The position numbers were made by a program, and so were the translations under genes. This document shows positions 31,988 through 64,000 of a stretch of DNA of 64,000 nt, in pieces. The stretch is from sequence record PZ445489.1; one strand, given 5' to 3'. This DNA is from a phage. Each line of letters begins with the position of its first letter. Position 1 is the first letter of the stretch. Under the pieces are notes generated by a model. The model had not been told where the DNA came from. It did no database searches and saw only the letters and a list, made by a program, of their open reading frames with translations.

Positions 31988-32083
31988 AATCTAGGAATTA
32001 AGACTATGCGTCCAGGAAAGTTTAAAAAAGCTAATTGGTCTAAAGAGTATAAAGAATACTTACTTAGTCTAGTAAAACATAAC

Positions 32084-36568: not shown

Positions 36569-36974
36569 GTGGTGTATCCTGGGAGCAGGTCTAGCGATAG
36601 GCATCGGGTTCGGTGCTTATCACTTAGTAGATAAAGTGGAGACTTTAGCGGGTGATCTTGCGGTAGCTACTAAAAAGATCTCTTCTCTAGAAACTTCCTT
36701 GAATAATGTAAAAGTTGAGAGTGAACGTCGTGAGACACGCATGAATCAATATTTTACACTGAATAATGTATCTCAAGCAGATCTAGACAAAAAGATTAAG
36801 CAGCTAGATAAAGCTCTTAGTCGCCAAGATGTTATCGCTGCAAAGCCTGGATTGGTAACATTAATTGCTAAAAAGCAGAATAAAGAGTTCGAGGAAAGAT
36901 TAGCGTGTTTAACTGGAAACTTGGAGTACTGCTCGCAGCCACAATCACAATCACAGGCTGTGCAGAAGAAATAA
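36525..36974 (+). CDS. membrane-anchored coiled-coil protein (149 aa)
   Basis: N-terminal hydrophobic segment then heptad-like region. Confidence 0.45.
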   Translation: MDLIQKLLSGIWHGKWCILGAGLAIGIGFGAYHLVDKVETLAGDLAVATKKISSLETSLNNVKVESERRETRMNQYFTLNNVSQADLDKKIKQLDKALSRQDVIAAKPGLVTLIAKKQNKEFEERLACLTGNLEYCSQPQSQSQAVQKK

Positions 36975-37258
36975 AACCAGAGCCATCTCATGAGTTAAAG
37001 CAAGCTCATGTAGACTGGCCTAAAGGACTTCAACCTTGTAGCTTTGACTTTAAGTTTGAAAAGAAATTAGCTACAAATGGAGAAGATGGCGTAGTAGTTG
37101 TTGTACCGTATAAAGATTGGAATGCAAAAGCAAAATGTGAGGAAGCAGTTTACTCTTACATTTCACGACTGACTGGTATGGTTTGCTTCTATCGCCAAGA
37201 TTTACAAGAAAAACGTTGCTTAGTTTACTATCCACCAATTAACAATAGGAAAGATTAA
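36905..37258 (+). CDS. putative lipoprotein (117 aa)
   Basis: Signal peptide with lipobox-like ITGC; GTG start. Confidence 0.45.
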   Translation: MFNWKLGVLLAATITITGCAEEIKPEPSHELKQAHVDWPKGLQPCSFDFKFEKKLATNGEDGVVVVVPYKDWNAKAKCEEAVYSYISRLTGMVCFYRQDLQEKRCLVYYPPINNRKD

Positions 37259-38778: not shown

Positions 38779-39435
38779 TTGGAAAAGTTCTTACAATTAT
38801 TAACGGTACTGCTCCAAGAAGCGAAAGATCCAGCATCGCTTCTTAAACGTCTGCTAACTATCTTAGTTGCTGTCATTATTTTCTTATTTGTTAGTAATAC
38901 TAGCGAGGTGATGTCATTCTTAAAGACTTTCTCCACGTCTGCGGTTCTACAGGATGTTCAAACTCAAAGGATAGATAACTTTCCTAATGTAGCTAGAGAA
39001 AAGAGCATGGTACTCTTTTCTCAAACGGGTGCGGATGCTGTTTTTGTCGTCAAGTATAAACCCGATGCCATTAATGATTATTCTAACATTATTGCATGGG
39101 AAAGCAATGCGCAATTAGATAGGGCTGACTTGGCCGATAAAGCGGTAAATAAAACGTCTGAGCTATATAGACGTCACTTGGAAGGCTTTAACTACGCATC
39201 GGATTTAAGTGTAAAAGTAAATAAATACATGGGGTTAAATATACCTGCGTTTAAGAACGTTACTTTTAATTACATATACACTTGTCCGTATTTCAATCTA
39301 AACAATATCTATGCTGGATATATTGGTATTGCTTGGAAAGATAACCCTGTAGATGCAGCCGATTCTGAGAAATTTAAGGAATATTTAACAAAGCTCTGTT
39401 CACCACAACAGAGATCTTTAGGTAGATCAATATGA
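38779..39435 (+). CDS. putative holin (218 aa)
   Basis: N-terminal TM helix LLTILVAVIIFLFV; sits directly upstream of endolysin with 4-nt overlap; TTG start after AGAGGAGG. Confidence 0.45.
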   Translation: MEKFLQLLTVLLQEAKDPASLLKRLLTILVAVIIFLFVSNTSEVMSFLKTFSTSAVLQDVQTQRIDNFPNVAREKSMVLFSQTGADAVFVVKYKPDAINDYSNIIAWESNAQLDRADLADKAVNKTSELYRRHLEGFNYASDLSVKVNKYMGLNIPAFKNVTFNYIYTCPYFNLNNIYAGYIGIAWKDNPVDAADSEKFKEYLTKLCSPQQRSLGRSI

Positions 39436-39845
39436 GTTTTAAATTTGGTAAAAATAGCGAAAAACAATTAGCTACCGTCAAGCCAGAGCTACAAAAAGTA
39501 GCTCGTAGAGCTTTAGAATTATCTCCATATGATTTTACGATCGTACAGGGTATTCGTACAGTAGCACAAAGTGCCCAGAATATTGCTAATGGTACTTCAT
39601 TTTTAAAAGATCCTAGTAAAAGTAAGCATATTACTGGGGATGCTCTTGATTTTGCTCCATACATTAATGGCAAAATTGATTGGAATGATTTAGAAGCATT
39701 TTGGGCAGTTAAGAAGGCTTTTGAACAAGCTGGTAAAGAGCTAGGCATTAAACTTCGTTTTGGTGCTGATTGGAATGCTTCGGGAGACTATCACGATGAA
39801 ATAAAACGTGGTACCTATGATGGCGGTCATGTCGAACTAGTTTAA
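39432..39845 (+). CDS. lys: endolysin, L-alanyl-D-glutamate peptidase (M15-like)
   Basis: 137 aa; HITGDALDF ... DGGHVEL zinc-peptidase motifs; same size as the T5 endolysin as I recall it. Confidence 0.8.
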   Translation: MSFKFGKNSEKQLATVKPELQKVARRALELSPYDFTIVQGIRTVAQSAQNIANGTSFLKDPSKSKHITGDALDFAPYINGKIDWNDLEAFWAVKKAFEQAGKELGIKLRFGADWNASGDYHDEIKRGTYDGGHVELV

Positions 39846-50224: not shown

Positions 50225-50825
50225 GTCGGATTTGCACACTGCATTTCTAGAAATTTATGGTCGGATTTGCACAAACGCCTAAGTTTTTAGGGACACATAA
50301 TCTCCTGAAAATAGCAGCATTATTTCGGGCCGAAGGCCCATGATTGCCTGAGTTTTTAGAGCCACAGAAATTTTCACTTGTCAAGCTATTTTGCCCCGTT
50401 TAGCTAATAAAATTTTACTTTTTCTGCACCTATCTCAAATTAACCCAAATTATCTCACATCTTCCCCAAAATCCCCGCAAATCAGGTGCTCCGCACCAAA
50501 CATGCGCCCCATCCTTCTAGCCTCCCAAATTTCTCTCACTCTCTCATCTTCTCCTCAAACCCACACAATCACACACCCTCCAATCGAAGTCACAAAAATC
50601 TTGTCGGATTCGCACAAATAAACCCATGTCGGATTTGCACATATTCTAGCTAATTCCACAGGATTGATGCGCAGCATCGGATTGCTGGAGTTTTTGGGAA
50701 AATTCATTGTCGGATTTGCACACTATAAAAATTTTTCGGGTCGGATTTGCACACTACCAAAAATTGTCGGATTCGCACATACATGCCCGCACGTAACACC
50801 CGTGGAGCAATGTCGGATTTGCACA
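50225..50825 (+). repeat. eight direct copies of 14-bp box GTCGGATT(T/C)GCACA
   Basis: Copies at 50225, 50260, 50603, 50628, 50709, 50740, 50766, 50812, all same orientation. Confidence 0.8.
50510..50585 (+). other. G-free C/T/A tract on + strand (about 75 nt)
   Basis: cctcccaaatttctctcactctctcatcttctcctcaaacccacacaatcacacaccctc has no G. Confidence 0.7.
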
Positions 50826-50871
50826 AAAGCGCAGGGCAATTGCCCTGCTAGCCTGAATGCGAATGATAATA

Positions 50872-51000
50872 AGAATCATTATCATTTAAAAAGCGAAATG
50901 AGAACTATTCAAAAAGTGAAATGATTCTCATTTAGGAAAGGAAATGATTATCGGTTAGAAAGTGAAATGCGAATGAGAATAATTCTCATTTAAGAATGGA
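50872..51000. promoter_or_regulatory. cluster of palindromic AATGAGAAT-N-ATTCTCATT-type operator-like boxes
   Basis: Palindromes at 50872-50896, 50928-50943, 50982-51000 plus GAAATGA half-site repeats. Confidence 0.55.
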
Positions 51001-51023
51001 AGTGAGAAACACTGTTATTTAAG

Positions 51024-51105
51024 TTATCCACAGACTTATTAACAGCACGATTTGACTTGACAGAATCCTAGCCATTTTGAGGCGTTATTAACAGACTTAT
51101 CCACA
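51024..51105 (+). promoter_or_regulatory. two DnaA-box-like TTATCCACA sites
   Basis: TTATCCACA at 51024-51032 and 51097-51105. Confidence 0.5.
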
Positions 51106-51129
51106 GCTTATCCTACTGTATAAATATAC
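51094..51129. repeat. 36-bp inverted repeat, left copy (partner 54637-54672)
   Basis: gacttatccacagcttatcctactgtataaatatac; 34 of 36 match reverse complement of right copy. Confidence 0.7.
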
Positions 51130-51327
51130 AGTATTCCTACGTAGTGAATAATTCTAATATACCGCTAAAACGTCCTAGATCGCATTCTAACGCGTTTAAT
51201 TTTGGTGGGGATACTAAAACAAGGGCAAAATTGGAGGAGGCTTAAAAATTAGTTAGCCCGCTAACGATCACACAAGTCGACACGTAACACCCTAATCATT
51301 AGCAGGCTAACCATCGCGGGCGCGCTC

Positions 51328-51348
51328 AAATGAGAATGATTCTCATTT
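51328..51348. promoter_or_regulatory. palindromic operator-like box AAATGAGAATGATTCTCATTT
   Basis: 10-bp arms, same family as the 50.9-kb boxes; just beyond 3' end of leftward operon. Confidence 0.5.
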
Positions 51349-51389
51349 GAGAATTGGGGGCACTCCCTGGTAGTTGCGCCCCGTTATTA

Positions 51390-51584
51390 TTAATCCGGTA
51401 ATTGATGCGTGATCTTCTCCTCTTCCCCATAGGAATCGACCAAATGCTGATAATAACCATCGGCATCATAAATAACGCTATCATATTCCCCCCGCTCGAC
51501 CGCTTGCCGGTTTTCCGGCGTATCGGGCACGTAAAAAACATCAACCATTGTACTGATTTTGGTTACAACAATTTTATTGCTCAT
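51390..51584 (-). CDS. hypothetical pre-early protein (64 aa)
   Basis: ORF, last gene of leftward operon; ATGA overlap with upstream gene. Confidence 0.45.
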   Translation of the reverse strand: MSNKIVVTKISTMVDVFYVPDTPENRQAVERGEYDSVIYDADGYYQHLVDSYGEEEKITHQLPD

Positions 51585-51925
51585 TGCGCCACCTTTCGAA
51601 ACGCTGTTTCAATACTATCCGCAGTGGATTGAATATACGCGCCTTTCATTACTAGGCGCTCGGTGCATACCTTGCGGAAAATATTAATAAAATCATCTTC
51701 ATTTTCTGCAATTAATGCTTCACCCATAACCTGAACGTCACAAGATGCAAAGGTCAAAAATTGAAACGCTAGTTCACGGGCAACGACCGCATTAATCTTA
51801 TAATGCGCTTTGCCCTCATAAATATTAATAACGCCCTTATAAGCTGGTGAAAGCTGGTTTAAATAGTTTGCTAACAATGCCGGGCGGCAATTAGCAACAA
51901 AGCGGTTGCCCTCATAAATAACCAT
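51581..51925 (-). CDS. hypothetical pre-early protein (114 aa)
   Basis: ATG after GGGAGG RBS (track start 51940 is upstream in-frame). Confidence 0.5.
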   Translation of the reverse strand: MVIYEGNRFVANCRPALLANYLNQLSPAYKGVINIYEGKAHYKINAVVARELAFQFLTFASCDVQVMGEALIAENEDDFINIFRKVCTERLVMKGAYIQSTADSIETAFRKVAQ

Positions 51926-51926
51926 T

Positions 51927-52052
51927 TTATAACCTCCCAATCAGATAGCCAGATAAAAGCATAAAAACCCCCAGTAAAAGGGGATCATTCTTAAATAGGG
52001 TGGCGGTAAAACCGCCAACCATTGCAAGGATAATAATAATAACGCTTTTCAT
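51927..52052 (-). CDS. small hydrophobic membrane peptide (41 aa)
   Basis: Single TM helix; stop overlaps next start; below ORF-track cutoff. Confidence 0.3.
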   Translation of the reverse strand: MKSVIIIILAMVGGFTATLFKNDPLLLGVFMLLSGYLIGRL

Positions 52053-52261
52053 AGTACCCCACGAAACGCAGCGTAAAAGGTGGCAAAGTGTTTAACCGTT
52101 TCAGCGATCACGTTGCCGCGCTTGTCAAATTTCTTTTCTGTAACACGAAAGGCATTCTTATTACGTGCTACATATTCGATTTTACAATCTTCACGCTCGA
52201 ACGTGTTAACATCCACCAGCTTAAAGCCTTTCGAACGGGCAAGGGAAACATTGCGGATCAT
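52049..52261 (-). CDS. hypothetical pre-early protein (70 aa)
   Basis: ATG after AAGGAG RBS. Confidence 0.5.
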   Translation of the reverse strand: MIRNVSLARSKGFKLVDVNTFEREDCKIEYVARNKNAFRVTEKKFDKRGNVIAETVKHFATFYAAFRGVL

Positions 52262-52263
52262 TT

Positions 52264-52419
52264 TTATTCTCCTTTACTAGTCATGCAGCCCAGCAGATAA
52301 GAAAATGCAGCGATACCTGCGCCAATAATAACCGCGTGAACGCCGAAAGCTATTGCAAACAACGATAAAATAGCGCCCAAGATACCCGCTAAAATAGCTC
52401 GAAAAATAACCATTTTCAT
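52264..52419 (-). CDS. small hydrophobic membrane peptide (51 aa)
   Basis: Single TM helix; below ORF-track cutoff. Confidence 0.3.
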   Translation of the reverse strand: MKMVIFRAILAGILGAILSLFAIAFGVHAVIIGAGIAAFSYLLGCMTSKGE

Positions 52420-52460
52420 TCCCCCTAGTTAGTGGGGCGAAAATAACGCCCCGTTATTAA

Positions 52461-52769
52461 TTACATTAAAACAATTTTAGCCGCTTGTTTTTTGGTGCAA
52501 TGTTCTGCTTTCAGGGTATCCAGCAAAAAGCCCGCCGTTTGCTGATCGATTTGATCATTATCATAAAGCGCCTGAATGGTAGTGTATGTTTTAGCAATGC
52601 CATATTCTTGCACCATTTCGTGAATAATAACGCGGTTAGATACCCAGCCTTGAGCGGTGAACAGATGACTAGCAGAAGAATAAGCAACCATTTTAAGCCT
52701 CCAATTTTTGGGAAAATTTTCAACCGTCCTCAAACGGTGTAAAGGCATTATAACAAAAAAGGCCACCAT
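52461..52769 (-). CDS. hypothetical pre-early protein (102 aa)
   Basis: ORF. Confidence 0.5.
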   Translation of the reverse strand: MVAFFVIMPLHRLRTVENFPKNWRLKMVAYSSASHLFTAQGWVSNRVIIHEMVQEYGIAKTYTTIQALYDNDQIDQQTAGFLLDTLKAEHCTKKQAAKIVLM

Positions 52770-52796
52770 AAAAGGCGACCTTTACAAAACTTTACA

Positions 52797-53291
52797 TTAG
52801 ACTACTTGTAGGGATTCAATATTGAAACATCGTTTCAATTCGTCATGCAAAACAGCATATTCATCCCATCGGGTACTATCAGGAATATAAACAAGCTGTT
52901 TTAATCGATTTGCGTATATTACCGCTTTGTTACCAACTATCTCGACGCCACCATATTTAATAATTAATCTCATGACGGAATTAATAGGATCGCCGCCGTT
53001 TACATATGTGCCGGATTTACTTAATTGATAATGATAAAGGCTTGCATATACGTTTTCATTTTCATACCATTCGCCAGTTTCTTCGTCTTCGTAACCATCG
53101 CTACCAAAACGAGAAGCATTATCAATAGCCATTTCCTGAGCGAAAGCGTCCAGATTACAGCCAGCTGGAACAAAATGTTCCTCCGTCCAACCTTCCCCGC
53201 AATAGCCAGTATGACAATCGACCAAAATGATCATATCATGTTTTGCCATGCTCACTTCTCCCAGTGAGAAGCCATATTTTTCATCAGCCAT
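52797..53291 (-). CDS. hypothetical pre-early protein (164 aa)
   Basis: ORF with GGAGG RBS. Confidence 0.55.
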   Translation of the reverse strand: MADEKYGFSLGEVSMAKHDMIILVDCHTGYCGEGWTEEHFVPAGCNLDAFAQEMAIDNASRFGSDGYEDEETGEWYENENVYASLYHYQLSKSGTYVNGGDPINSVMRLIIKYGGVEIVGNKAVIYANRLKQLVYIPDSTRWDEYAVLHDELKRCFNIESLQVV

Positions 53292-53356
53292 TTATTAGCC
53301 TCCTATTAATTAACAAGGGAATACTAAAGCGGGGTAACAATCCCCGCTTAGTATTA

Positions 53357-54367
53357 TTACTCGCTTTCGGTGTTAGTAGTAAAAGTAGAAATATCAATAC
53401 CTTTTACCATTTCATCAATCATTTCAGCGATGTTAAAACTTTGCACCATTTCTAACATAGCCGCTTCCATAGCCGCGCCTGCTACCGCTTTCGCTTTCTG
53501 GTTACTCGGGGCATACTGGTCAACCGCTACACTCAGCAGGTTGGCAATCACTACCCGACCAATCGGTGTATCAATATAACCTTTGATCATAAACGGTGCT
53601 TTTTTAGCCGCTACTTTCGTGATTTGAGTCAATGCAATTTTACCTGCTTCCAGTTTTGCAGCATTTACAACAGCGGATTTATTAGCGGCAACAATATTAG
53701 CGATCTTGGTCATGGTGTTTTTTCCTTTGTTTTCAGTAGTTTGAATTTTAACGCTTTGAGTGTTAGAATTTACAGCATGGTTTTCTACGCTGTCAATAAT
53801 CTGATCTTCATCTTTCCAGAAAGAAAAACCAGCGCTTTCTATATCCCCATCATAAATATATGGGTATAGCTCCCGTGGTAACAAAAAATTACCGTCGCCA
53901 TCAAAAGCCATTATACCGGTATATTGAGATCCGTCGTTATCCGGCTTATGCCATCCAGCCGGTAAATACTTCCAGATAACATCTAAAAATCCCTCAATAC
54001 TAGAAAGTCCGTTTATCAGATCAAGCCCAATAAGCTCAAAACCATTTATATTAAATGATTGACGGCCTGAATTGCTATGATACGCAACAATATTATTACC
54101 CTGTGCAACAATAAAATCGGTATCCGGCCCCGCTCCCCTGCCAGTAAAGATATGGCAATCACGGTTATATAAAACTAGCGTTGCCCCGTACTTATATAAT
54201 GGCAAAAAACCTTCCATATCATAGGCGTCATAGTCATCAAAAAAGTTTTGATGAATAGTTTCAGCCTTGTTAATAAAATGTTTAATGCTGGTTGACTTGC
54301 TACCGTCCAGCAGGTTACGCAGCGCACCTTTTAAGACGGTAGCATTATCAGGTTTATACAGCCTCAT
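53357..54367 (-). CDS. hypothetical pre-early protein (336 aa)
   Basis: First and largest gene of leftward operon; RBS GGAGG. Confidence 0.55.
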   Translation of the reverse strand: MRLYKPDNATVLKGALRNLLDGSKSTSIKHFINKAETIHQNFFDDYDAYDMEGFLPLYKYGATLVLYNRDCHIFTGRGAGPDTDFIVAQGNNIVAYHSNSGRQSFNINGFELIGLDLINGLSSIEGFLDVIWKYLPAGWHKPDNDGSQYTGIMAFDGDGNFLLPRELYPYIYDGDIESAGFSFWKDEDQIIDSVENHAVNSNTQSVKIQTTENKGKNTMTKIANIVAANKSAVVNAAKLEAGKIALTQITKVAAKKAPFMIKGYIDTPIGRVVIANLLSVAVDQYAPSNQKAKAVAGAAMEAAMLEMVQSFNIAEMIDEMVKGIDISTFTTNTESE

Positions 54368-54636
54368 TTGTTCGGCCTCCCTCGTTAATCGGTGAGTGAA
54401 TGATATAGATATTTTCTTTCTAGGGGCAAATATTATTTTACCTTTTTATTTTCCTTGCCTAGCGCCTAGTTTTATGCTAACCGCGCAGCGGTGCAATAAA
54501 GAGCAAAACACGGCGAAGCCCCCAGGGCGACGGGTGAAGGCTTTACTTTAATATTACCCCACCGCATTTAGCTCGTTAGAAAGCGTTTTAGGCCGCTTAA
54601 AATTGATTGCAGTTGTTAACACTACCTTTTTACCTT

Positions 54637-54672
54637 GTATATTTATACAGTAGGATAACATGTGGATAAGTC
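54637..54672. repeat. 36-bp inverted repeat, right copy (partner 51094-51129)
   Basis: gtatatttatacagtaggataacatgtggataagtc. Confidence 0.7.
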
Positions 54673-54742
54673 TGTGGATAAGCCCTTATATCGCCGCCTA
54701 TTGTGTCAAATCATTTTGTGCTGTGGATAACGTTGTGGATAA
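54661..54742 (-). promoter_or_regulatory. cluster of four DnaA-box-like sites
   Basis: TGTGGATAA on + strand at 54661, 54673, 54722, 54734 (TTATCCACA on minus). Confidence 0.55.
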
Positions 54743-55025
54743 CTTAAATGATAGTGGTTCTCACTTAGGCCGATAGTTTCTTATAGTTATTATTTCTATT
54801 GGTTACGATTTCTTATAATTATTATTTCTCATTAATTTATATGTATATTATATATCATGAAATAGTTAGTTGGCTAATGAGATTTTCCGTGATTAATAGT
54901 CTGCTAATAATTTAAGCCGTTACAATCCACCAGCACGATTATCATCCTAGCAATTATAAGCCTGCTATTCTCCCAATACACACTAACAAACAAAAGTCAA
55001 TTAATTTATTTCATAAAATAAGTAG

Positions 55026-55058
55026 TTATCCACTGGAAAATAAAAGTCAAGTGGATAA
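55026..55058. promoter_or_regulatory. inverted pair of DnaA-box-like sites
   Basis: agttatccact and agtggataact, 11-bp arms 14 nt apart. Confidence 0.5.
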
Positions 55059-55459
55059 CTAGGAAAATTTCATTTTTGCTTTTTGGGGATAAGTTATCAA
55101 CAAGGCTAGAATGCGCCTAAAACGCCCTAGAACGCGATGAAAGTTTTAGCCATGCCATTGCATTGCCTACCCTCGTTTATCGCTGCCACGAGCTTTTTAA
55201 GTTTTGTCAATACCCCCAAAGCAAATATAGATGAAAAAATTACTTGCCAACCTGCTGGGTTTTATGGTATTCGCGCGCCCGTTTCTTTTAATTTTAGTGC
55301 GGCGCGCCCAGGTCGCCGCACGCCGTCCGGTTAATCGTGTCTTTACGTTTCTTTACAAAAATAAGGTTGCGCCATTTTTGGTATTTGCTATTATTTACCA
55401 CGTAGGGCGGCAATGACGAACTACACGGCGGGAAGTTTACCGCCGCGCTCTTTAAAAAT

Positions 55460-55483
55460 TGGGTACATCTTAAAGCCTATCGG
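55460..55483. repeat. 24-bp perfect inverted repeat, left arm
   Basis: tgggtacatcttaaagcctatcgg; exact reverse complement at 55729-55752. Confidence 0.8.
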
Positions 55484-55516
55484 CGGTAAACTTATTCATT
55501 ATAAGGAATCGACGAT

Positions 55517-55720
55517 ATGAAACAAACTTTATTGATCACTGGTAAACCTAGCAAGGCACTGGACAGCAAAACAAAAAATTTGTTGACAGTAGCGCAAAGA
55601 TCGGTAAAATATCGATTTAAGCAGTACAAGAAAGGCCGCCAGCAAGGTCTGGAAATGATCTGGCGTAATATTATGATTGACTTAAAAGAAAATCATAAAA
55701 AACTGCAAAAAATTGTTTGA
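55517..55720 (+). CDS. small basic protein (67 aa) bracketed by 24-bp inverted repeat
   Basis: ATG with weak purine-rich RBS (GGAATCGACGAT upstream); Lys/Arg-rich. Confidence 0.45.
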   Translation: MKQTLLITGKPSKALDSKTKNLLTVAQRSVKYRFKQYKKGRQQGLEMIWRNIMIDLKENHKKLQKIV

Positions 55721-55728
55721 CACCCTAG

Positions 55729-55752
55729 CCGATAGGCTTTAAGATGTACCCA
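55729..55752. repeat. 24-bp perfect inverted repeat, right arm
   Basis: ccgataggctttaagatgtaccca. Confidence 0.8.
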
Positions 55753-55947
55753 GTTCGATAAGAGCGATAACTTGATAAAATTTGACGGTCGGCACTTACC
55801 ATAATGTGCCCCGCCCCCTAACTGGGATATAGCGGCCTGCGTGGAGTTCTTTAAATTGATTATATTGGCGAGCGGATTGTTGCTTATTACCTGCTAGAAA
55901 GTAGCAGGTAATGCGGAACAATCCCCTAAATAACTGGAGTTTATACT

Positions 55948-56199
55948 ATGCAAAACGTTATCATTACGCCGAAAGTTGGTCAATCCGTTTTTATTCCTTT
56001 CGTTACTAAAACGGATGAATTAACCGGAAAGGCCGAACGCATTAAAGGCGCGGCGCTTATGCCGTTCGATACAATCGACGCGGTATACGCTGAAACGGAA
56101 CGGAGTAACAACGGCAAAACCGTTTTTAGCGTTCGCGTTAAATCCGGCGACGTTGTAAAGGTTGTCCAGCGTAACGAAAAATGGGAAGCTGTAGCGTAA
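55948..56199 (+). CDS. hypothetical pre-early protein (83 aa)
   Basis: ATG after GGAG RBS. Confidence 0.5.
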   Translation: MQNVIITPKVGQSVFIPFVTKTDELTGKAERIKGAALMPFDTIDAVYAETERSNNGKTVFSVRVKSGDVVKVVQRNEKWEAVA

Positions 56200-56300
56200 T
56201 ATAGTGTTAACTTTATATTCCTCTGAAATATGGGGAATATAATGATTAACATTAAGTTAATCATTAAATCCCTTAAATTAAACTAACAGGAGCTACAATC

Positions 56301-56708
56301 ATGACTAACGTTAAAACCGCAAAATTCTCATGGAATGAAGAAAACACCCAAAAAGCTGTTACCATGTACCAGCAGTTAATTAATGAAAACGGTTTAGATT
56401 TCGCAAATAGCGACGGCCTGAAAGAGATTGCAAAAGCAGTTGGCGCGGCCTCCCCCGTGTCCGTTCGCTCAAAATTGACCAGCGCGAAAGCGTATCAGAA
56501 AAGCGATAAGCCGCGCAAAGTTGGCGGCGGTAGCTCAATCCGCAAAGCGCATTATGTGCGCGTTATTGCAAAACACGCTATCGATTCCGGCATTATCAAA
56601 GACGCCGACGATCTGGCATCACTGGAAAGCGCAAAACTGGAAACGCTGGACGCCGTGGCGCAACTGTTAGGCGTTGCCGATGAAGTGAAACAAGCCGCAG
56701 GCGAATAA
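56301..56708 (+). CDS. A2: pre-early protein, A2-like by size and position
   Basis: 135 aa, AGGAG RBS, directly upstream of A1-like gene; assignment by synteny and size only. Confidence 0.4.
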   Translation: MTNVKTAKFSWNEENTQKAVTMYQQLINENGLDFANSDGLKEIAKAVGAASPVSVRSKLTSAKAYQKSDKPRKVGGGSSIRKAHYVRVIAKHAIDSGIIKDADDLASLESAKLETLDAVAQLLGVADEVKQAAGE

Positions 56709-56765
56709 ATTTAATTAGTGGGGAATATTCCCCACTATAATTTCCCTTTGACTGGAGTTATTAAA

Positions 56766-56963
56766 ATGATCTTTTACCCTACTGAATCCTTAATTCTAGG
56801 CTTATTTATTATGGCGGCCTCATTACTATTCGCTTATTTTCAAAATGATTTAGATTCATATTATTTTAAACGTAAATCTAAGTTAGCAAAGCGTTTAGGT
56901 CTGATTTGTTTTATTGCCGCCGTTGTTTGTGGTGTTAGTTCTAGCCTTATGCCTTTAAATTAA
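56766..56963 (+). CDS. small membrane protein (65 aa)
   Basis: ATG after GGAG RBS; two hydrophobic segments (track start 56718 is upstream). Confidence 0.45.
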   Translation: MIFYPTESLILGLFIMAASLLFAYFQNDLDSYYFKRKSKLAKRLGLICFIAAVVCGVSSSLMPLN

Positions 56964-57060
56964 TGTTGCAAATTATAACGCCTCAAATAATAGGCGTTAT
57001 ATTTGGCAATATTTGCCAATAACAAACGTTTTTTAATCCCTTTAATGGAGTTTTATTACT

Positions 57061-58725
57061 ATGATTATTTCCGCAGAAAAACAAACCGTTATCCTGAAAA
57101 TGGCCGCTGACTTTAATTTCTACGGTAAACGTCTGCGCGCTACTAAACTGGAGGTCTGCGACGATATATCAAAAGCGGTTTACGATACTCCAAAACATTC
57201 CACCGCTATTTGTGATTGGCTGGAAGCAAATAAACCAGCGAAACCGAAAGCGGCGAAAGTAGCAAAAGCCATTAAAAACGATGAGCGCCCAGAAGCGGCG
57301 GGGATTGTTTCTAGCACGGTGGAAAGCTGGGAAGTAAAACAAGGCAAACGCTTTATTATTACATCGATTCAGAATAATACGTTCCCGCATAAAAACTTTT
57401 TAGCCTCACTGGAGCAATTTGCTAAATATATCGGCGCTGATTTGCTGGTTAGCAAGTATATTTATAATAAAAACGGATTCCAAAATGGCGAGGGCGCGGA
57501 TGGAATAAAATATGATTCCGCGTTCGATAAATATATTTGCAGCAAAAACGTGTTTTTGAATAATCGCCGTTTTGCTTTCATGGCTGAAATTAATGTTTTG
57601 CCCACCGCAGATTATCCGCTTTCTGGATTCGCTGAAACTGCAACCGCGCTTAATCTGGAAGGTCTGGCAATTGGTCACGCTAAAATCACCGCCGAAAGCG
57701 TGCCAGCTTTAAAAGGTGAAGTAGTGCGCCGCATGTATTCAACTGGCACGGCAACGCTTAAAAATTACATCCAGCAGAAAGCAGGACAGAAAGCGGAAGC
57801 ACTGCATAACTTCGGTGCGCTGATTGTTGAGTTCGACGAAGACGGTGAGTTTTTTGTTCGCCAGCTTGAAACAATGGACGAAAGCGGGGTGTTTTATGAT
57901 CTGAATGTTTGCGCTACTCCCGCCGGATGCTATGAAACATCGGGGCATGTTTTAGGCTTACAATACGGCGATATTCACGCAGAAAAATTAGATGAAGAGT
58001 GCGCCGCCGCGTCATGGGCTGGCGAAAATAGCTTGCTTGATATTCTTAAACCAAAATATCAGTTTATCCATGACGTTCACGACTTTACATCACGCAACCA
58101 TCACAACCGCGCTTCGGGTGTATTCCTAGCAAAACAATACGCCGCCGGACGTGATAAAGTTCTGGATGATCTTATCGATACCGGTCGCGTGCTGGAATCA
58201 ATGGAACGTGATTTCTCGCAAACAATCATTGTTGAATCTAATCACGATCTGGCGCTATCCCGTTGGCTGGATGATCGTAATGCTAACATTAAAGACGACC
58301 CCGCAAACGCGGAACTATATCACCGCCTTAATGCCGCGATTTATGGCGCTATTGCAGAAAAAGACGATACTTTCAACGTGCTAGATTATGCGCTGCGTAA
58401 GGTTGCAGGTTGCGAGTTTAACGCCATTTTCCTAACGACTGACCAATCATTTAAAATTGCAGGCATTGAATGCGGCGTACACGGTCACAATGGCATAAAC
58501 GGCAGCCGTGGCAATCCGAAACAGTTTAAGAAATTGGGCAAATTAAACACGGGGCACACTCATACCGCCAGCATTTACGGCGGGGTATATACCGCTGGCG
58601 TGGCTGGTAGTCTGGACATGGGTTACAACGTTGGCGCGTCAAGCTGGACACAAACGCATTTAATTACCTATGCAAATGGTCAGCGTACTTTGATCGACTT
58701 TAAGAACGGTAAATTTTTTGCGTAA
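57061..58725 (+). CDS. A1: pre-early protein A1-like with calcineurin-like phosphoesterase motifs
   Basis: 554 aa; GDIHAE, ESNHD and GHTHTAS resemble Mre11/SbcD-type metallophosphoesterase motifs; size matches T5 A1 as I recall it. Confidence 0.55.
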   Translation: MIISAEKQTVILKMAADFNFYGKRLRATKLEVCDDISKAVYDTPKHSTAICDWLEANKPAKPKAAKVAKAIKNDERPEAAGIVSSTVESWEVKQGKRFIITSIQNNTFPHKNFLASLEQFAKYIGADLLVSKYIYNKNGFQNGEGADGIKYDSAFDKYICSKNVFLNNRRFAFMAEINVLPTADYPLSGFAETATALNLEGLAIGHAKITAESVPALKGEVVRRMYSTGTATLKNYIQQKAGQKAEALHNFGALIVEFDEDGEFFVRQLETMDESGVFYDLNVCATPAGCYETSGHVLGLQYGDIHAEKLDEECAAASWAGENSLLDILKPKYQFIHDVHDFTSRNHHNRASGVFLAKQYAAGRDKVLDDLIDTGRVLESMERDFSQTIIVESNHDLALSRWLDDRNANIKDDPANAELYHRLNAAIYGAIAEKDDTFNVLDYALRKVAGCEFNAIFLTTDQSFKIAGIECGVHGHNGINGSRGNPKQFKKLGKLNTGHTHTASIYGGVYTAGVAGSLDMGYNVGASSWTQTHLITYANGQRTLIDFKNGKFFA

Positions 58726-58781
58726 ATAATTAATACCCTAGCGGCTTGAAATATAGCCGCTATTATAGGAGCTAAATTAGA

Positions 58782-59039
58782 ATGAAAGTTACATTACCCA
58801 AAACGCTGGACGAAAAAGCATTTATTTCACCGGATGAAATGGAATCCGATAAAGTTTACAGCTTCGGGCCTATCCTAGCCGCCAAAACTAATACGGATGG
58901 GATTATTACGGTCGATTATCGTGATAATGATATTATCCCTTTTGACGATGATGACGCTTTTTATGAGTGGCTAAGCGATAATAATTTACCCGTAAATGGT
59001 GAATTAACGCCGTATCAAATGCAGATTATTATCAAGTAA
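58782..59039 (+). CDS. hypothetical pre-early protein (85 aa)
   Basis: ATG after AGGAG RBS. Confidence 0.5.
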   Translation: MKVTLPKTLDEKAFISPDEMESDKVYSFGPILAAKTNTDGIITVDYRDNDIIPFDDDDAFYEWLSDNNLPVNGELTPYQMQIIIK

Positions 59040-59079
59040 ATTAAATACCCTTTATTAAATTAATTGGAGTTTTATAAAT

Positions 59080-59472
59080 ATGAAAAAGCAAAATATCCCA
59101 TTCGATCGCGCTCAATCTTCCATTGTTCTGGTTTATTCTAATGGTGAACGTTACCACGTCGAGGCGGGGCACGTTATTGATGAGCTATTGGACTTTAACG
59201 ACGCTTTGCAGGTTACTACCTTTGCCTATACGCAAGGTAAACTAACTAGCCATATTAAAGCAAAAGGTGTTTATGTTGACACTGTGAAACAAGAAACGAT
59301 TATCATCGACGCCGTAAAATCCGGCCTAGCCTTTGCAGTTGTCGCGCCTTGCCCCGCTTGCCTCGATGATCAATTGACCAGCGCAAAGGTATATACCTGC
59401 GCGGGCATTCGTTCCGGTGTATCTGGTGAAGATATTAGTTTTATTGCTGATGCGTTGGCGTATGGTCTTTAA
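59080..59472 (+). CDS. hypothetical pre-early protein (130 aa)
   Basis: ATG after GGAG RBS. Confidence 0.5.
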   Translation: MKKQNIPFDRAQSSIVLVYSNGERYHVEAGHVIDELLDFNDALQVTTFAYTQGKLTSHIKAKGVYVDTVKQETIIIDAVKSGLAFAVVAPCPACLDDQLTSAKVYTCAGIRSGVSGEDISFIADALAYGL

Positions 59473-59552
59473 TAGTTAATTTATTATTACCCGCTTATAA
59501 ATAGCGGGTAATGCTGAATTAATCTAATCCCTTAAATGGAGAACGTAACAAA

Positions 59553-60287
59553 ATGAATCAAGTTAAAACGAATATTACCCGTAATTTCCCGCATATTTCC
59601 CGCGTCATGATTTGGGATCTGGACGGAACTATCATTAATTCTTTCCATCGCGTAGCGCCTTGCTTTGATAGCGAGGGCAATTTAGATTTAAATAAGTATA
59701 AAAATGAAGCATGTAAACATGATTTAATAATGCAAGATACACTATTGCCGCTTGTTACATATATGCGCCAGTGCATGAATGATGTTAGTACGTTAAACAT
59801 TATTTGCACCGCTCGACTGATGAGCAAGTCGGACTATTATTATTTGCGCAAACAAGGATTGCGAGGGCGTGGGGATAGTAATATCCGTGTATTTTCCCGC
59901 GATACACTACACAAATATTTTGAGGCTGATAAAGTTAGCGAGATATACCACAGCAAAGACGCTATTTATAAAAGCCATTACTTTGAGTTATTTAAACAAT
60001 TATATCCGAACGCTGATTTCACGATGATTGATGATCATAAAGGCGTGCTATCAGCGGCGGCGTCATACGGATTTAAAACGCTGGACGCGCAAGCCGTTAA
60101 CGATATTCTATCGATTGGGGTTACATTGATAGGTGAAACCTTTATCGATGAATCTCTTGAGGATGATAATGATTATCAGTTCCTAGCCGACCGCCTGCAA
60201 TTATGTTGGGAAGGTATGACCGAAGAAGAACGCGCAGAATATAGTTGCAGCCCGCAACAATATATTGAGAAATTAAAAGTTGCGTAA
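59553..60287 (+). CDS. dmp: HAD-family 5'-deoxyribonucleotidase-like protein (Dmp-like)
   Basis: 244 aa; HAD motif I IWDLDGTIIN; size and position match T5 dmp as I recall it. Confidence 0.55.
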   Translation: MNQVKTNITRNFPHISRVMIWDLDGTIINSFHRVAPCFDSEGNLDLNKYKNEACKHDLIMQDTLLPLVTYMRQCMNDVSTLNIICTARLMSKSDYYYLRKQGLRGRGDSNIRVFSRDTLHKYFEADKVSEIYHSKDAIYKSHYFELFKQLYPNADFTMIDDHKGVLSAAASYGFKTLDAQAVNDILSIGVTLIGETFIDESLEDDNDYQFLADRLQLCWEGMTEEERAEYSCSPQQYIEKLKVA

Positions 60288-60299
60288 TAATTAAAGTTG

Positions 60300-60345
60300 A
60301 AATAGTCACGGTGTGTAATGATAACATGCCGTGACTATTAGCCTG
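60300..60345 (+). terminator. hairpin after dmp-like gene
   Basis: agtcacggtgtgtaatgataacatgccgtgact stem-loop; no clear T-run. Confidence 0.35.
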
Positions 60346-60438
60346 CTAAGTACCGGGCGGTAATGAGACTCATTCTCATCTGGAGGGCCACTGGACACAC
60401 CTCCATGTGTAATCTTATGAAATTTGGCAAAAAGTCAA

Positions 60439-60684
60439 TTAGCGCATAGAAGGGTCATCAAAACGATGTTCAGGTTTAAACTCACGAAATCTCTTCCGCG
60501 ACGCCCGAGATCCATCCGACCATTCTCGCTCAAACTCCGCACGTTTCTCGTCAAACTTCCGCTCCCTATCCGCAATCTCCCGCGTCACTCCCGCAATATA
60601 TTTACGATGCTTGTTGATTGCCGCAGTTGTCCCGAAAACCCCCGCGAGTATCCCGATAATAAAAGCAATTACAATACTAAACAT
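60439..60684 (-). CDS. small membrane protein (81 aa)
   Basis: N-terminal TM helix then charged tail. Confidence 0.45.
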   Translation of the reverse strand: MFSIVIAFIIGILAGVFGTTAAINKHRKYIAGVTREIADRERKFDEKRAEFEREWSDGSRASRKRFREFKPEHRFDDPSMR

Positions 60685-60871
60685 CTAATTCCCTCTCAAT
60701 TTGCAGAATACGGGTACTATCACAACGTTGCAGTAGTGCTAGCTTTTCTAGAGTAACTTGTTGTTGTTTTACCTGAGCTTCTAGCGTTTTTAGGCGAACG
60801 TACACGGTGTAAGAAATAATGAAAACTGCCCAGACTAGTATTACTGTTAGTGTAGCTACTACCTCCATCAT
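60677..60871 (-). CDS. small membrane protein (64 aa)
   Basis: N-terminal TM helix; overlaps downstream gene start. Confidence 0.45.
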   Translation of the reverse strand: MMEVVATLTVILVWAVFIISYTVYVRLKTLEAQVKQQQVTLEKLALLQRCDSTRILQIERELDV

Positions 60872-60974
60872 TTACATTTCTCCGATAGTAAGGTTTCGAT
60901 TCTAGCTAAGTGATTATCTAAGATACATTGCCCAATAATCACAATCCCTAGTAATGCAATAATTACCCATTCCA

Positions 60975-61160
60975 TTAAATCCATCCCGCCATAGCTGCTA
61001 ACCAAAAACCTACGAAGATTAGGAATAATACAAAACCAAATCCGTAAATATTAATCCACTCTTCGTACACCTCTCCGCGTCTGTTCTTTCTTTTGTTGCC
61101 GTTTGACATGTCTTTCATACTCCCGTAAATGTGGTATTTGGAATATTCTAGCAATTGCAC
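60975..61160 (-). CDS. small membrane protein (61 aa)
   Basis: C-terminal TM helix. Confidence 0.4.
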   Translation of the reverse strand: MQLLEYSKYHIYGSMKDMSNGNKRKNRRGEVYEEWINIYGFGFVLFLIFVGFWLAAMAGWI

Positions 61161-61272
61161 AAGTCATAACATTTTATCTTATATGATGTTCTGAATGACC
61201 TCAATTGCATTGTGAACTAGTTTTGACCTAGGATCCACCCTAAGTGGCATGGGTTTATGGGAGGGATTCTCC

Positions 61273-61506
61273 TCAGAAAACTCCTTCACATGTATTCCCC
61301 TCGGTAAAGTAGCTTACTGGAGCCCAGAAAGATCCATAGGCCATGATTGGTGCCACCAGGAACATATCCCCTTTTCTATCAAAAACATTAGCCTTATATT
61401 TCACATGATCTTGTACATAGTAGGCCTCACATTTAATATCTTTAGGCCCAAAAGTAGAGCAAGCCGAAAGAAGTACCACTGCCATAGCTAAAAATAATTT
61501 TTTCAT
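61273..61506 (-). CDS. llp: lytic-conversion lipoprotein Llp-like
   Basis: 77 aa; signal peptide with lipobox LSAC; AGGAG RBS; divergent from pb5-like gene as in T5. Confidence 0.75.
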   Translation of the reverse strand: MKKLFLAMAVVLLSACSTFGPKDIKCEAYYVQDHVKYKANVFDRKGDMFLVAPIMAYGSFWAPVSYFTEGNTCEGVF

Positions 61507-61585
61507 TTACATTCTCCTCTGTTTAATTTATAATACTATTATACAGAATTATAGCAACATAAGCAATTAAATTTTTGGAGAACTT

Positions 61586-63508
61586 ATGAGTTTTTTCGCT
61601 GGCAAGCTAAATAACAAATCTATACTCTCTCTACGCAGGGGTAGTGGCGGAGATACTAATCAACATATTAATCCTGACTCTCAGACCATATTCCATTCAG
61701 ATATGCCCCATGTTATCATAACAGAAACTCACTCCACAGGGTTGAGGCTAGATCAAGGTGCTGGAGATTACTACTGGTCTGATATGCCTAGCAGAATTAC
61801 CCAGTTACATAATAATGATCCTAATAGGGTTGTGCTGACAGAGATTGAGTTCTCAGATGGCTCTAGACATATGCTATCTGGCATGTCTATGGGGGTAGGA
61901 GCTAAAGCGTATGGAATTATAAATCCGCAGGTCATGTCTCAAGGTGGTTTAAAAACACAAATAACAGCTAGTGCTGATCTATCTCTTGATGTAGGCTATT
62001 TTAATAGTGGTACTAGCGGTACGATCCCCCAGAAGCTTAGAGATGGTACTGGATGTCAGCATATGTTTGGAGCCTTTAGTGGGCGTAGAGGATTTGCATC
62101 TAGTGCAATGTACTTAGGCGGTGCCGCTCTTTACAAATCTGCCTGGGATGGTTCAGGATATGTAGTGCCGGATTCAGGAACTCTAACTATCCCTAGCGAC
62201 TACGTTAGGCATCCAGGAGCTAGAAACTTTGGATTTAACGCCATATATGTTCGTGGTAGGTCTTGTAATAGAGTTCTTTATGGTATGGAAGGGCCCAACT
62301 ACACCACTGCTGGAGCTGTACATGGGGCGTCGAGTTCAGGGGCTCTTAACTTTATGTCTAATCCTAGCAATCCCTCGGCTCCTAAGTACTCTGTAGGTTT
62401 CGCACGTGCTGATCCCACTAACTATGCGTATTGGGAAAGTATGGGTGATCCGAATGATGCTGCTAATGGGCCCATAGGTATATATAGTGAGCACCTCGGT
62501 ATTTATCCATCTAAAATTACCTGGTATGTTACTAACTTAGTGTATAATGGTTCAGGTTATAGTATTGATGCTGGATTATTTACAGGTAATGATATAAAAT
62601 TAAGCCCCACTGAATTTATTATTAAAGGTATTAACGTTAATAATACATCTTGGAAGTTTATCAACTTTGTTGAGAAAAACTTTAATGTAGGGAGCAGAGC
62701 TGATTTTCGTGATGTTGGGTGTAACTTGAGTATGGGTGGCCCCTCTACTGGGATCTCTGGCATAGCAACATTTGGACTACCAACCACAGAAAGCAATAAC
62801 GCACCAAGTATTAAGGGTGGTAACGTTGGTGGTTTAAATACTAATGTAGTTAGTATTTATAACTTTTTACCTTCAGCATCTTGGTATGTTTCTAGTAATC
62901 CTCCAAAAATAGGGAGTAATTATGGGGACGTTTGGAGTGAAAATCTTCTACCTTTAAGACTTCTAGGTGGTAGCGGAAGTACTGTACTATCTGGTAACAT
63001 AGTATTTCAGGGTAATGGTTCCGTGCATGTTGGTACCGTGGGACTAGATCTTAATAGTAGTAGAAATGGTGCAATTGTATGTACTATGGAGTTCCTAGAT
63101 GACACATGGTTGTCTGCAGGAGGTATTGGCTGCTTTAATCCTACGGAAATGCTATCTAAAGGCGCTGAATATGGCGATAGTAGGTTTAGAATGGGTGGCA
63201 ATACTATTGATAAAAAACTTCACCAAATATTGTCCCTACCTGCAGGAGAATATGTACCATTTTTTACTATTAAAGGTACTGTAGTAAATGCTTGTAAATT
63301 ACAGGCTGCTGGGTATACTCCAACTCCGTACTGGGTATCTGGGTTGCCAGGATCCGTAGGTCAAACGGGTTACTATACTCTAACATACTATATGAGAAAT
63401 GATGGAAATAATAATATCTCTATTTGGTTAGAATCCTCTATGAGCAATATAATTGGCATGAAAGCATGCTTACCAAATATTAAACTTATAATTCAACGCC
63501 TTACCTAA
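61586..63508 (+). CDS. oad: receptor-binding tail protein pb5-like
   Basis: 640 aa, the size of T5 pb5 as I recall it; Gly/Ser/Asn-rich; adjacent and divergent to llp-like gene. Confidence 0.65.
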
Positions 63509-63518
63509 AGGAGGAAAT

Positions 63519-64000
63519 ATGGCAAATGATGTATTAGTACCAGATCTTATGTCCCCTGAAGGGATGGATGTAATTGAAGCTTATTTACAGTGCGGCAGCG
63601 ATGTGCCTTCTGCCGCACGTAGTCTTGGAATGTCCGAAATTGCTTTCCGAGATATTATGAATCGTAGTGAGGTTAAGAACTACTTAAATGGTATTTTTAT
63701 GGAGAGTGGTTTCCGTAATAGGGATCGTTTATTTGGTGTTCTGGATGAAGTTATTAAGCGTAAGCTGGAGGAACTAGAAGAAACTGGCATGGGTTCTGAC
63801 CAGGATATTATGGATATTCTCTGGAAAGCACACAAAATGAAGATGGAAGAAATGAAGATGATGGTGGAGTTAGAAAAAGCTAAAGCTGCCATCCGAGCTC
63901 CTGCTAATCAGACTAATATCCAGAATAACATTATTGCTGGAGCCGGGGATCAAAACTACATGGATTTAATTACTTCCCTAGCTACTGGAGGTAAGAAGTA
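63519..64000 (+). CDS. late-region protein with HTH-like N-terminus, possibly terminase small subunit; 3' end beyond window
   Basis: Open frame from ATG 63519 to window end; RBS AGGAGG; [16 protein letters not shown] helix-turn-helix-like segment. Confidence 0.35.

Follow-up and report, generated by a model that had tools for sequence, protein, structure and literature searches.

The closest described counterpart of the locus considered here is the receptor module of phage T5, which consists of oad (T5.157), encoding the receptor-binding protein pb5, and llp (T5.158), encoding the lytic-conversion lipoprotein. Both T5 proteins are structurally characterised (PDB entries 8A60 and 7QJF for Llp, 8B14 and 8A8C for pb5). 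In T5, pb5 is established as a late product, located at the tail tip, that binds the outer-membrane ferrichrome transporter FhuA with four loops entering the FhuA lumen, and Llp is established to bind the FhuA plug, drawing extracellular loops 7 and 8 inward and so blocking pb5. The FhuA-inserting loops of pb5 were defined as L1 (tip Gln115), L2 (tip Phe170) and L4 (residues 570–590); mature T5 Llp contains a disulfide Cys11–Cys58 and contacts the FhuA plug with Ile39–Trp46 (PMC9586334). The Cor superinfection-exclusion lipoproteins of T1 and phi80 (phrog_1119) are likewise small FhuA-blocking outer-membrane lipoproteins, whose genomic contexts differ from that of llp and for which a pairwise identity of only about 20% is reported (PMC9586334). 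Receptor modules are swapped as units among T5-like phages (PMC10644984; PMC8624392), and the BtuB-type hrs/llp modules of BF23, Spc35 and Epseptimavirus share one architecture with the T5 type: a receptor-binding gene, a divergent lipoprotein gene, small membrane open reading frames (ORFs), the edge of the terminal repeat, and a convergent dmp.

Comparison of the locus with T5

The window, i.e. the whole stretch of 64 000 nucleotides of phage DNA that was analysed (record PZ445489.1), was compared with T5 and related phages. Positions 59500–63600 (4.1 kb) were colinear with T5 at 86.4% nucleotide identity, with the same gene order and strands, and 97.9% identical to phage Elw. At one side lies dmp (59553–60287, + strand), encoding a 5′-deoxyribonucleotidase identical to T5 Dmp in 239 of 244 residues, annotated as dmp in T5, Elw and BF23, and placed as the last gene within the terminal repeat. 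At the other side, a sciB homolog (63519–64000, + strand) encodes a translation matching T5 SciB; RefSeq T5, Elw and BF23 name the gene small terminase subunit. The window includes all 160 codons, and the stop codon lies beyond its end. Between them, the original prediction had described a divergent pair of ORFs of 77 and 640 aa and had likened it to the llp/oad (pb5) arrangement of T5. Both ORFs were found exactly as described, separated by 79 bp, and gene order, divergent orientation, protein lengths and back-to-back promoter region all corresponded to T5, where the promoter spacer also measures 79 bp. Comparison with the T5 proteins, proposed as a check, gave identities of 97.4% for Llp and 94.4% for pb5, far beyond chance. 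No observation speaks against llp and pb5 being what they are taken for. With high confidence, and with the role proposed below for the small proteins included, the locus is read as the place where the right unique arm of a Tequintavirus (T5-like) genome meets the terminal repeat, carrying an FhuA-specific receptor-binding and receptor-blocking module. It is an ordinary instance of the already known T5 module.

Promoters and predicted transcripts

The 79-bp spacer (61507–61585) contains a divergent promoter region with TTTACA-17-TATAAT on the + strand (11/12 match) and TTGCTA-16-TATTAT on the − strand. Across this region, 89 of 96 positions are invariant relative to T5, where the late promoter T5P42 and the early promoter T5P41 are annotated. 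Transcription of llp would run opposite to oad from the early promoter of this back-to-back pair, and it is most likely, judged from the sequence, that llp and the four small ORFs following it are co-transcribed. As a separate observation, a further promoter is predicted in BF23 in the interval from llp to the first small ORF, which counts against a single llp transcript.

Between the convergent dmp and llp-operon units, a hairpin was predicted from folding energy at 60301–60339, 58–96 nt inside the repeat (ΔG −18.5 kcal/mol on the − strand and −23.4 kcal/mol on the + strand; z-scores −5.3 and −7.0, respectively). T5 and BF23 have a hairpin of other sequence at the equivalent place, which is annotated as a rho-independent terminator in T5. 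Since a U-rich tract follows the hairpin only on the − strand, it looks like a terminator of the llp operon. The transcript would then cross the 42 nt that separate the last small gene from the terminal repeat and stop at this hairpin, shared with dmp.

Lipoprotein Llp

The gene llp (61273–61506, − strand) encodes a lipoprotein precursor of 77 aa, identical to T5 Llp at 75 positions, with M31V and S52A as the two substitutions. Structure searches matched 8A60 chain B (E = 6.3e-50) and 7QJF (E = 1.2e-39). The protein also matched the Cor profile phrog_1119 (E = 1.4e-18) and had barely any similarity to BF23 Llp. The lipobox LSAC reported in the original prediction is present at the end of the signal peptide (MKKLFLAMAVVLLSA/C), with Cys16 as the predicted acylation residue; the RefSeq T5 record marks the same Cys as the N-terminal residue that is fatty-acylated in the mature lipoprotein. 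Precursor residues 54–61 (IMAYGSFW), corresponding to the plug-contacting Ile39–Trp46 of the mature protein, are unchanged, and Cys26 and Cys73, the counterparts of the mature Cys11–Cys58 disulfide pair, are present in the sequence. As in T5, the product would be lipidated at Cys16 and placed at the periplasmic face of the outer membrane, where binding to the FhuA plug would fold loops 7 and 8 inward and block pb5. Infected cells and debris would therefore stop capturing phage.

Small membrane proteins downstream of llp

Three small transmembrane proteins had been predicted at 60439–61160. Membrane ORFs are indeed located there, between llp and dmp, and there are four of them, an ORF of 35 aa having been missed. 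They are homologs of T5.159–T5.162 (ORF148–151) and share with these the order, the overlaps and the 42-nt distance to the repeat edge, at 73–91% protein identity. Each contains one strongly hydrophobic segment (best 19-aa Kyte–Doolittle window 2.3–2.45).

The T5.162 homolog (81 aa; 60439–60684, − strand) is 84% identical to T5 ORF151 (phrog_6447, E = 5.8e-47) and has an N-terminal membrane helix running into a long, highly charged helix; in the AlphaFold2 model, residues 2–68 form a single long helix. The T5.161 homolog (64 aa; 60677–60871, − strand; 82.5% identical to T5 ORF150; phrog_5851, E = 4.9e-32) combines an N-terminal membrane helix with a coiled-coil-like tail ending in ERELDV. The T5.160 homolog (35 aa; 60868–60975, − strand) is the ORF that had been overlooked; it likewise starts with a membrane helix and is identical to T5 ORF149 at 32 of 35 positions (phrog_6369, E = 7.9e-25). 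The fourth is the T5.159 homolog (60975–61109, − strand), whose frame can be read as an ORF of 61 aa reaching to 61160. The upstream part is a GTG-started extension of what is probably a gene of 44 aa: RefSeq T5.159 has 42 aa, T5.159 and phrog_8596 span only the last 40–44 residues of the longer ORF (phrog_8596, E = 7.1e-29 on residues 22–61), and GGGAG is located 10 nt upstream of the ATG at 61109. The protein has a basic N-terminus and a C-terminal membrane helix of the tail-anchored type. Relative to T5.159 it carries a 2-residue insertion, and its N-terminal half is more diverged, being the Elw/Epseptimavirus-like variant MSNGNKRK.

A 104-aa ORF, intact in Epseptimavirus phages, has left two out-of-frame remnants at 61054–61274 (− strand), as tblastn showed; residues 4–37 of the Eps7 ORF correspond to 61274–61176 and residues 65–103, in another frame, to 61170–61054. 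The small ORFs carry wrong names in several public records, where they appear as tail fibre, tail assembly, lysozyme or capsid-scaffold proteins.

Scans of the small ORFs against Pfam and NCBIfam yielded sub-threshold compositional matches only. LapA_dom (21 bits, cut-off 28), FtsL (13.5, cut-off 50) and SecE (13.6, cut-off 106) were rejected as homology, and the PADLOC scan gave no match. Members of the T5.162 family turned up in T5-like phages only, both when 5.8 billion proteins were searched by word index and when 1.84 billion representatives were searched exhaustively with a profile. A full-text literature search for T5.159–162 gave no paper; data on them came only from the supplement of a T5 CRISPRi-ART knock-down screen, in which all four are scored 'Not Fit' (PMC11879866, supplementary file 16); recent papers on Llp, BF23, phiR2-01 and HIDEN-SEQ are silent on them.

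Hydropathy and charge distribution by themselves suggest that almost nothing of the small proteins is exposed to the periplasm and that their soluble parts are cytoplasmic. The likeliest assignment, as far as the sequences allow, is that of non-essential early accessory proteins at the inner membrane. A putative role as membrane-acting early proteins is plausible in view of the orientation shared with llp, the start/stop overlaps and the T5 early promoter upstream of llp.

A function in lysis, as holin, antiholin or spanin components beside the outer-membrane lipoprotein Llp, was weighed against this assignment. The small single-pass architecture and the adjoining outer-membrane lipoprotein gene would fit such a function, and the T5.161 homolog superficially resembles an inner-membrane spanin, having an N-terminal membrane helix, a coiled-coil-like segment and one Cys. 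However, a full T5 lysis set, 90–99% identical to T5.044/045/041/040, is located elsewhere in the window, with spanins at 36555–37255, holin at 38779–39432 and endolysin at 39432–39842; T5-like lysis cassettes including spanins have been described (PMC4342426). The role of Llp is moreover established and structurally defined, the small proteins are predicted to have their soluble parts in the cytoplasm, and the T5 knock-downs were scored 'Not Fit'. No lipobox was found in any of the four ORFs, their charged tails are predicted to be cytoplasmic, and neither a periplasmic coiled-coil component paired with an outer-membrane lipoprotein nor a holin adjoining an endolysin was recognised among them. 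The spanin/holin idea was dropped once the lysis cassette had been located at 36.5–39.8 kb, and a lysis function is considered improbable.

Edge of the terminal repeat

The original prediction had placed the repeat edge, as probable, inside the 1-kb interval of the small ORFs. By homology, the edge maps to 60397, just outside that interval. The junction at the outer edge of the repeat (60391–60416, − strand) reads AAGATTACACATGGAGGTG/TGTCCAG, the slash marking the edge; GATTACACATG is conserved at this junction. The motif occurs once in the window, where chance alone would give 0 matches. In T5, BF23 (PhageTerm), Spc35, Elw and SIY1lw, the repeat is annotated to start within 1 nt of the slash. 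Mapped in this way, the repeat would comprise 60397 and below and unique DNA would begin at 60398, the edge lying 42 nt beyond the stop of the T5.162 homolog in the 151-nt spacer between it and dmp. All four small genes would thus be located in unique DNA and would not be pre-early (first-step-transfer) genes.

An edge within the small-ORF block (60439–61160), by which some of the membrane proteins would be duplicated, pre-early and transferred in the first step, is very unlikely. It draws on the window holding no second repeat copy for checking and on the annotated repeat starts of chee24 and Kenya-K18, which lie about 94 nt and about 34 nt, respectively, off the consensus position, so that annotated edges are not perfectly consistent. 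Both of these starts, however, lie deeper in the repeat, towards dmp and away from the small ORFs, and the edges of T5 (two independent records), BF23, Spc35, Elw and SIY1lw lie 41–42 nt beyond the stop of T5.162 or coincide with the conserved junction.

The window contains one repeat copy only, with both unique arms flanking it; the assembly has collapsed the repeat, whose two ends map by homology to about 50359 and 60397. No copy of the outer-edge junction motif was found at the inner repeat edge. The block of about 30 bp conserved exactly at the edge could be the signal that generates the T5 genome ends.

Conservation of the small genes and exchange of receptor modules

The small ORFs are very short (35–81 aa), match no Pfam family and have homologs in T5-like phages only, and the T5.161 homolog has a relatively high dN/dS (0.35–0.48) and is missing in Spc35 and IrmaTschudi among the 10 loci compared. 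On these grounds they might be taken for chance frames or for a non-coding spacer between llp and the repeat. This is hardly credible, given that the frames remain open in two genera with long invariant motifs, that T5.162 homologs occur in 444 phage records and that dN/dS is below 0.5 for all four ORFs (T5.162 homolog 0.12–0.37; T5.160 homolog 0.07–0.08; T5.159 homolog 0.25–0.28). Each ORF is also preceded by a Shine–Dalgarno sequence, and neighbouring ORFs overlap at their start and stop codons (ATGA, TAATG and ATGTTTAG), an arrangement that suggests translational coupling. Synteny of the small ORFs, in their place between llp and the repeat edge, was seen in 10 loci. The T5.160 homolog was found in all 10 loci; because the T5.161 homolog is missing in two relatives, the four proteins need not work as one unit.

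The small ORFs are kept beside non-homologous llp and receptor-binding genes in BF23, Spc35, chee24, K18, Eps7, IrmaTschudi and SIY1lw. In the BtuB-type modules, the receptor-binding protein is just 30% identical to the present one and the lipoprotein essentially unrelated, whereas the flanking small ORFs are still 70–100% identical; the swapped unit therefore is the receptor-binding gene plus llp alone. As the small ORFs stay constant while FhuA- and BtuB-type receptor genes are swapped, and are confined to T5-like phages, they could provide, at the inner membrane, a second layer of superinfection exclusion or envelope protection that does not depend on the receptor, co-expressed with Llp and complementing it. 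Such a layer might, for example, stop a second phage genome from entering. Although this is the favoured guess at a specific function, it is tentative and, on balance, rather unlikely.

Receptor-binding protein and receptor specificity

The gene oad (61586–63508, + strand) encodes the 640-aa receptor-binding tail-tip protein pb5 of the FhuA type, identical to T5 pb5 at 604 positions. Matches were obtained to the structures 8B14 and 8A8C (1400 bits) and to the profile phrog_4815 (E = 4e-257). The 36 substitutions relative to T5 pb5 are spread along the protein and are densest at residues 241–400. A comparison of the receptor-specificity region, which had been proposed as a further check, showed the contact loops to be essentially unchanged: the FhuA-contacting tips Q115 (L1) and F170 (L2) are kept, L1 and L2 differ from T5 only by I116V, and L4 (residues 570–590) has two substitutions, A576G and N578T. 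As in T5, the protein would be a late product located at the tail tip (assumed from the 94–97% identity of the module) and would bind FhuA with four loops entering the lumen. FhuA binding and exclusion are inferred for the present pb5 and Llp, and no functional difference from their T5 counterparts is predicted.

A receptor other than FhuA, e.g. BtuB or FepA as in other T5-like phages, would draw on the exchange of receptor modules as units (PMC10644984; PMC8624392) and on the 36 substitutions, and can practically be dismissed on the near-identity of the contact loops, on the 94% full-length identity to T5 pb5 against only 30% to the BtuB-type Hrs of BF23, and on the cognate Llp being 97% identical to the FhuA-blocking Llp.

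The locus is closely orthologous to a phage receptor module that ranks among the best characterised, so it carries little weight as a discovery and is mainly good for typing. Its practical use is that the host receptor becomes predictable and that the phage can be typed as FhuA-dependent and T5-like.

Gene organization of the llp–oad locus

The 59500–63600 interval was matched by 404 phage records using megablast, among them vB_EcoD-Elw (97.9%) and three T5 records (86.3–86.4%), each colinear across the whole 4.1 kb. The ORF listing comprised a dmp-like ORF (59553–60287, + strand), four short ORFs between 60439 and 61160 (− strand), a 77-aa ORF (61273–61506, − strand) encoding Llp, the receptor-blocking lipoprotein, and a 640-aa ORF (61586–63508, + strand) encoding the receptor-binding tail-tip protein pb5 (oad). 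The latter two are divergent with 79 bp between them, and their coordinates are exactly those originally predicted. A homolog of SciB, the small terminase subunit (63519–64000, + strand), is present with 160/160 codons and has its stop codon beyond the window end. Order and strands are those of the T5 annotation: A1, two small ORFs, dmp, terminator, repeat edge, ORF151–148 (T5.162–159), llp, back-to-back promoters, pb5 (oad) and sciB. Identity to T5 was 98.0% for dmp, 84%, 82.5%, 91% and 73% for the homologs of ORF151, ORF150, ORF149 and ORF148, respectively, 97.4% (75/77) for Llp and 94.4% (604/640) for pb5; the last two values confirm the predicted similarity to the T5 proteins. The main interpretation of the original prediction, a T5 llp/oad arrangement, is correct, and the whole locus is already annotated in T5 and relatives.

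The 79-bp spacer contains promoter-like sites toward pb5 (TTTACA-17-TATAAT, + strand) and toward llp (TTGCTA-16-TATTAT, − strand). Around it, 89 of 96 positions are invariant compared with T5, for which the late promoter T5P42 and the early promoter T5P41 are annotated there. Early expression of Llp was described by Decker et al. 1994, according to papers citing that work. Elsewhere in the window, a tRNA gene cluster (20049–32159, + strand) with 23 (ARAGORN) to 24 (Rfam) genes was located, as expected for a T5-like phage.

Receptor specificity

Codon differences between the pb5 genes of the window and T5 were mostly synonymous (237, with 36 non-synonymous). Top structure matches were the solved T5 proteins, 8B14 and 8A8C for pb5, and 8A60 (complex with FhuA) and 7QJF for Llp. 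In contrast, the BtuB-type receptor-binding protein of BF23 is 30% identical to the window pb5, and the BF23 blocking lipoprotein has hardly any similarity to the window Llp. The parts of T5 pb5 inserted into FhuA are Gln115 (L1 tip), Phe170 (L2 tip) and residues 570–590 (L4) (PMC9586334). Comparison of this receptor-specificity region, as originally proposed, showed Q115 and F170 unchanged and loop L4 differing at A576G and N578T. Llp has the lipobox LSAC with Cys16, retains Cys26 and Cys73, corresponding to the mature Cys11–Cys58 disulfide pair of T5 Llp, and keeps the segment IMAYGSFW (mature residues 39–46), whose position is that of the FhuA switch helix. Since Q115, F170 and the Llp features are kept and BtuB-type proteins are distant, we infer from identity that the window phage is specific for FhuA, with the mechanism published for T5. 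In T5, pb5 plugs FhuA's extracellular lumen, and periplasmic Llp binds the FhuA plug, whereby EL7 and EL8 are forced inward and pb5 binding is prevented (PMC9586334). In the window phage, pb5 would likewise plug the FhuA lumen, and Llp would bind the plug, push EL7/EL8 inward and bar pb5.

Terminal-repeat edge and repeat content

Annotations of the right-repeat start put it 41–42 nt past the stop codon of T5.162 for both T5 records, BF23 and Spc35, the BF23 edge having been set with PhageTerm (PMC10644984), and at the same conserved junction as T5 in Elw and SIY1lw. The edges of T5, BF23, Spc35, Elw and SIY1lw all lie within 1 nt of the junction between AAGATTACACATGGAGGTG and TGTCCAGTGG, a motif occurring once in the window. 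Homology would place the repeat edge at 60397, inside the 151-nt dmp/T5.162 spacer and outside the 60439–61160 interval in which it had been expected. In chee24 and Kenya-K18, the edge is annotated 94 and 34 nt further into the repeat, respectively, probably imprecisely. A block of ~30 bp, CCAAATTTCATAAGATTACACATGGAGGTG followed by TGTCCAGTGG (within 60380–60430, − strand), is conserved across Tequintavirus and Epseptimavirus, whereas flanking intergenic DNA diverges; annotated repeat starts coincide with the junction between its two parts. No similar motif was seen at the inner repeat edge. The block may be the signal generating the genome end.

A hairpin at 60301–60339 (dG −18.5 and −23.4 kcal/mol; z −5.3 and −7.0) is located between dmp and the llp operon, which are convergent, 58–96 nt inside the repeat; a hairpin whose sequence differs occurs at this position in T5 and BF23. 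A U-rich tract follows the hairpin on the − strand only, matching the T5 annotation of a terminator in the llp-operon direction. The window shows colinearity, in reverse, with T5 1–12000 that extends across the inner repeat edge; window position 50359 is the counterpart of T5 position 10139. One repeat copy (~50359 to 60397) is flanked by both unique arms; the source assembly therefore collapsed the ~10-kb direct terminal repeat. Inside it, an 85-aa ORF (58782–59039, + strand) at the position of T5 ORF154 (92 aa; 18% identical) is a non-homologous gene replacement common to Elw (phrog_8297).

Small membrane protein genes

Small transmembrane ORFs were found where predicted, but they number four rather than three, all on the − strand: the homologs of T5.162 (60439–60684, 81 aa; PHROG E 6e-47), T5.161 (60677–60871, 64 aa; 5e-32), T5.160 (60868–60975, 35 aa; 8e-25) and T5.159 (60975–61109, 44 aa; 7e-29). 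The 61-aa ORF probably counted originally is a GTG-started extension of the T5.159 homolog; the PHROG profile and RefSeq T5.159 reach only its last 40–44 residues, and a GGGAG stands 10 nt upstream of the ATG at 61109. The genes overlap at ATGTTTAG, ATGA and TAATG, and a Shine-Dalgarno sequence precedes each (4/4), a layout that fits translational coupling in a single operon. Each ORF has one hydrophobic segment (4/4; Kyte-Doolittle mean 2.3–2.45 over 19 residues), and RefSeq T5 likewise annotates a single transmembrane domain for each of T5.159–162. With dN/dS of 0.07–0.48 (vs T5, BF23 and Eps7) and long invariant motifs kept across Tequintavirus and Epseptimavirus, all four are, judged by sequence comparison, real genes under purifying selection. 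Between llp and the T5.159 homolog, in what looks like a spacer, two out-of-frame remnants (61054–61274, − strand) of a 104-aa ORF, intact in Eps7 and SIY1lw, were located; as its central part is lost, this is a decayed gene.

The AlphaFold2 model of the T5.162 homolog was a single unbroken helix (residues 2–68, mean pLDDT 78). The membrane helix is N-terminal in T5.162 and T5.161, with basic residues and a long segment, charged or coiled, after it; in T5.159 the N-terminus is basic and the membrane helix is C-terminal. Under the positive-inside rule, a cytoplasmic location would be expected for the soluble parts of all three. In a T5 dCas13d knock-down screen, T5.159–162 were all "Not Fit", so that they are dispensable under laboratory conditions, and oad was "Semi-Fit" (PMC11879866 supplement). 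They would best be described as non-essential early accessory proteins at the inner membrane. Receptor-independent exclusion or envelope protection beside Llp would be our preferred guess at their role, albeit a rather doubtful one. A function as lysis genes was rejected, the full set being located elsewhere in the window: overlapping Rz-like spanins (36555–37255), holin (38779–39432) and endolysin (39432–39842), 90–99% identical to T5.044/045/041/040.

T5.162 homologs were found in 444 phage records and none outside T5-like phages (5.8 billion proteins; profile search against 1.84 billion representatives). The family contained no Pfam domain, PADLOC gave no match for the small ORFs, and LapA_dom, FtsL and SecE were discarded as sub-threshold, compositional matches. 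In records OR621298 (Elw), PP105779 (SIY1lw) and the EC100/EC142 series, homologs of the small ORFs are named 'tail fiber protein', 'tail assembly protein', 'capsid and scaffold protein' or 'lysozyme', labels supported by none of our profile searches. In Kenya-K18 (L008, 1706–2203) and IrmaTschudi (L006, 2951–3424; each in locus coordinates), inserted HNH homing-endonuclease genes separate the T5.162 homolog from the repeat edge and take the place of the last ~14 residues of T5.162; the family thus has two C-terminal variants, as HNH insertion replaces the C-terminus in some relatives.

The comparison covered ten loci (T5, Elw, BF23, Spc35, chee24, Kenya-K18, Eps7, IrmaTschudi, SIY1lw and the window). 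In all ten, T5.159, T5.160 and T5.162 lie between lipoprotein gene and repeat edge; T5.161 is absent in Spc35 and IrmaTschudi. In BtuB-type loci, receptor-binding and lipoprotein genes are non-homologous, yet the T5.159/160/162 homologs are retained. The exchangeable module therefore comprises only the receptor-binding gene and llp, the small genes being part of the conserved backbone.
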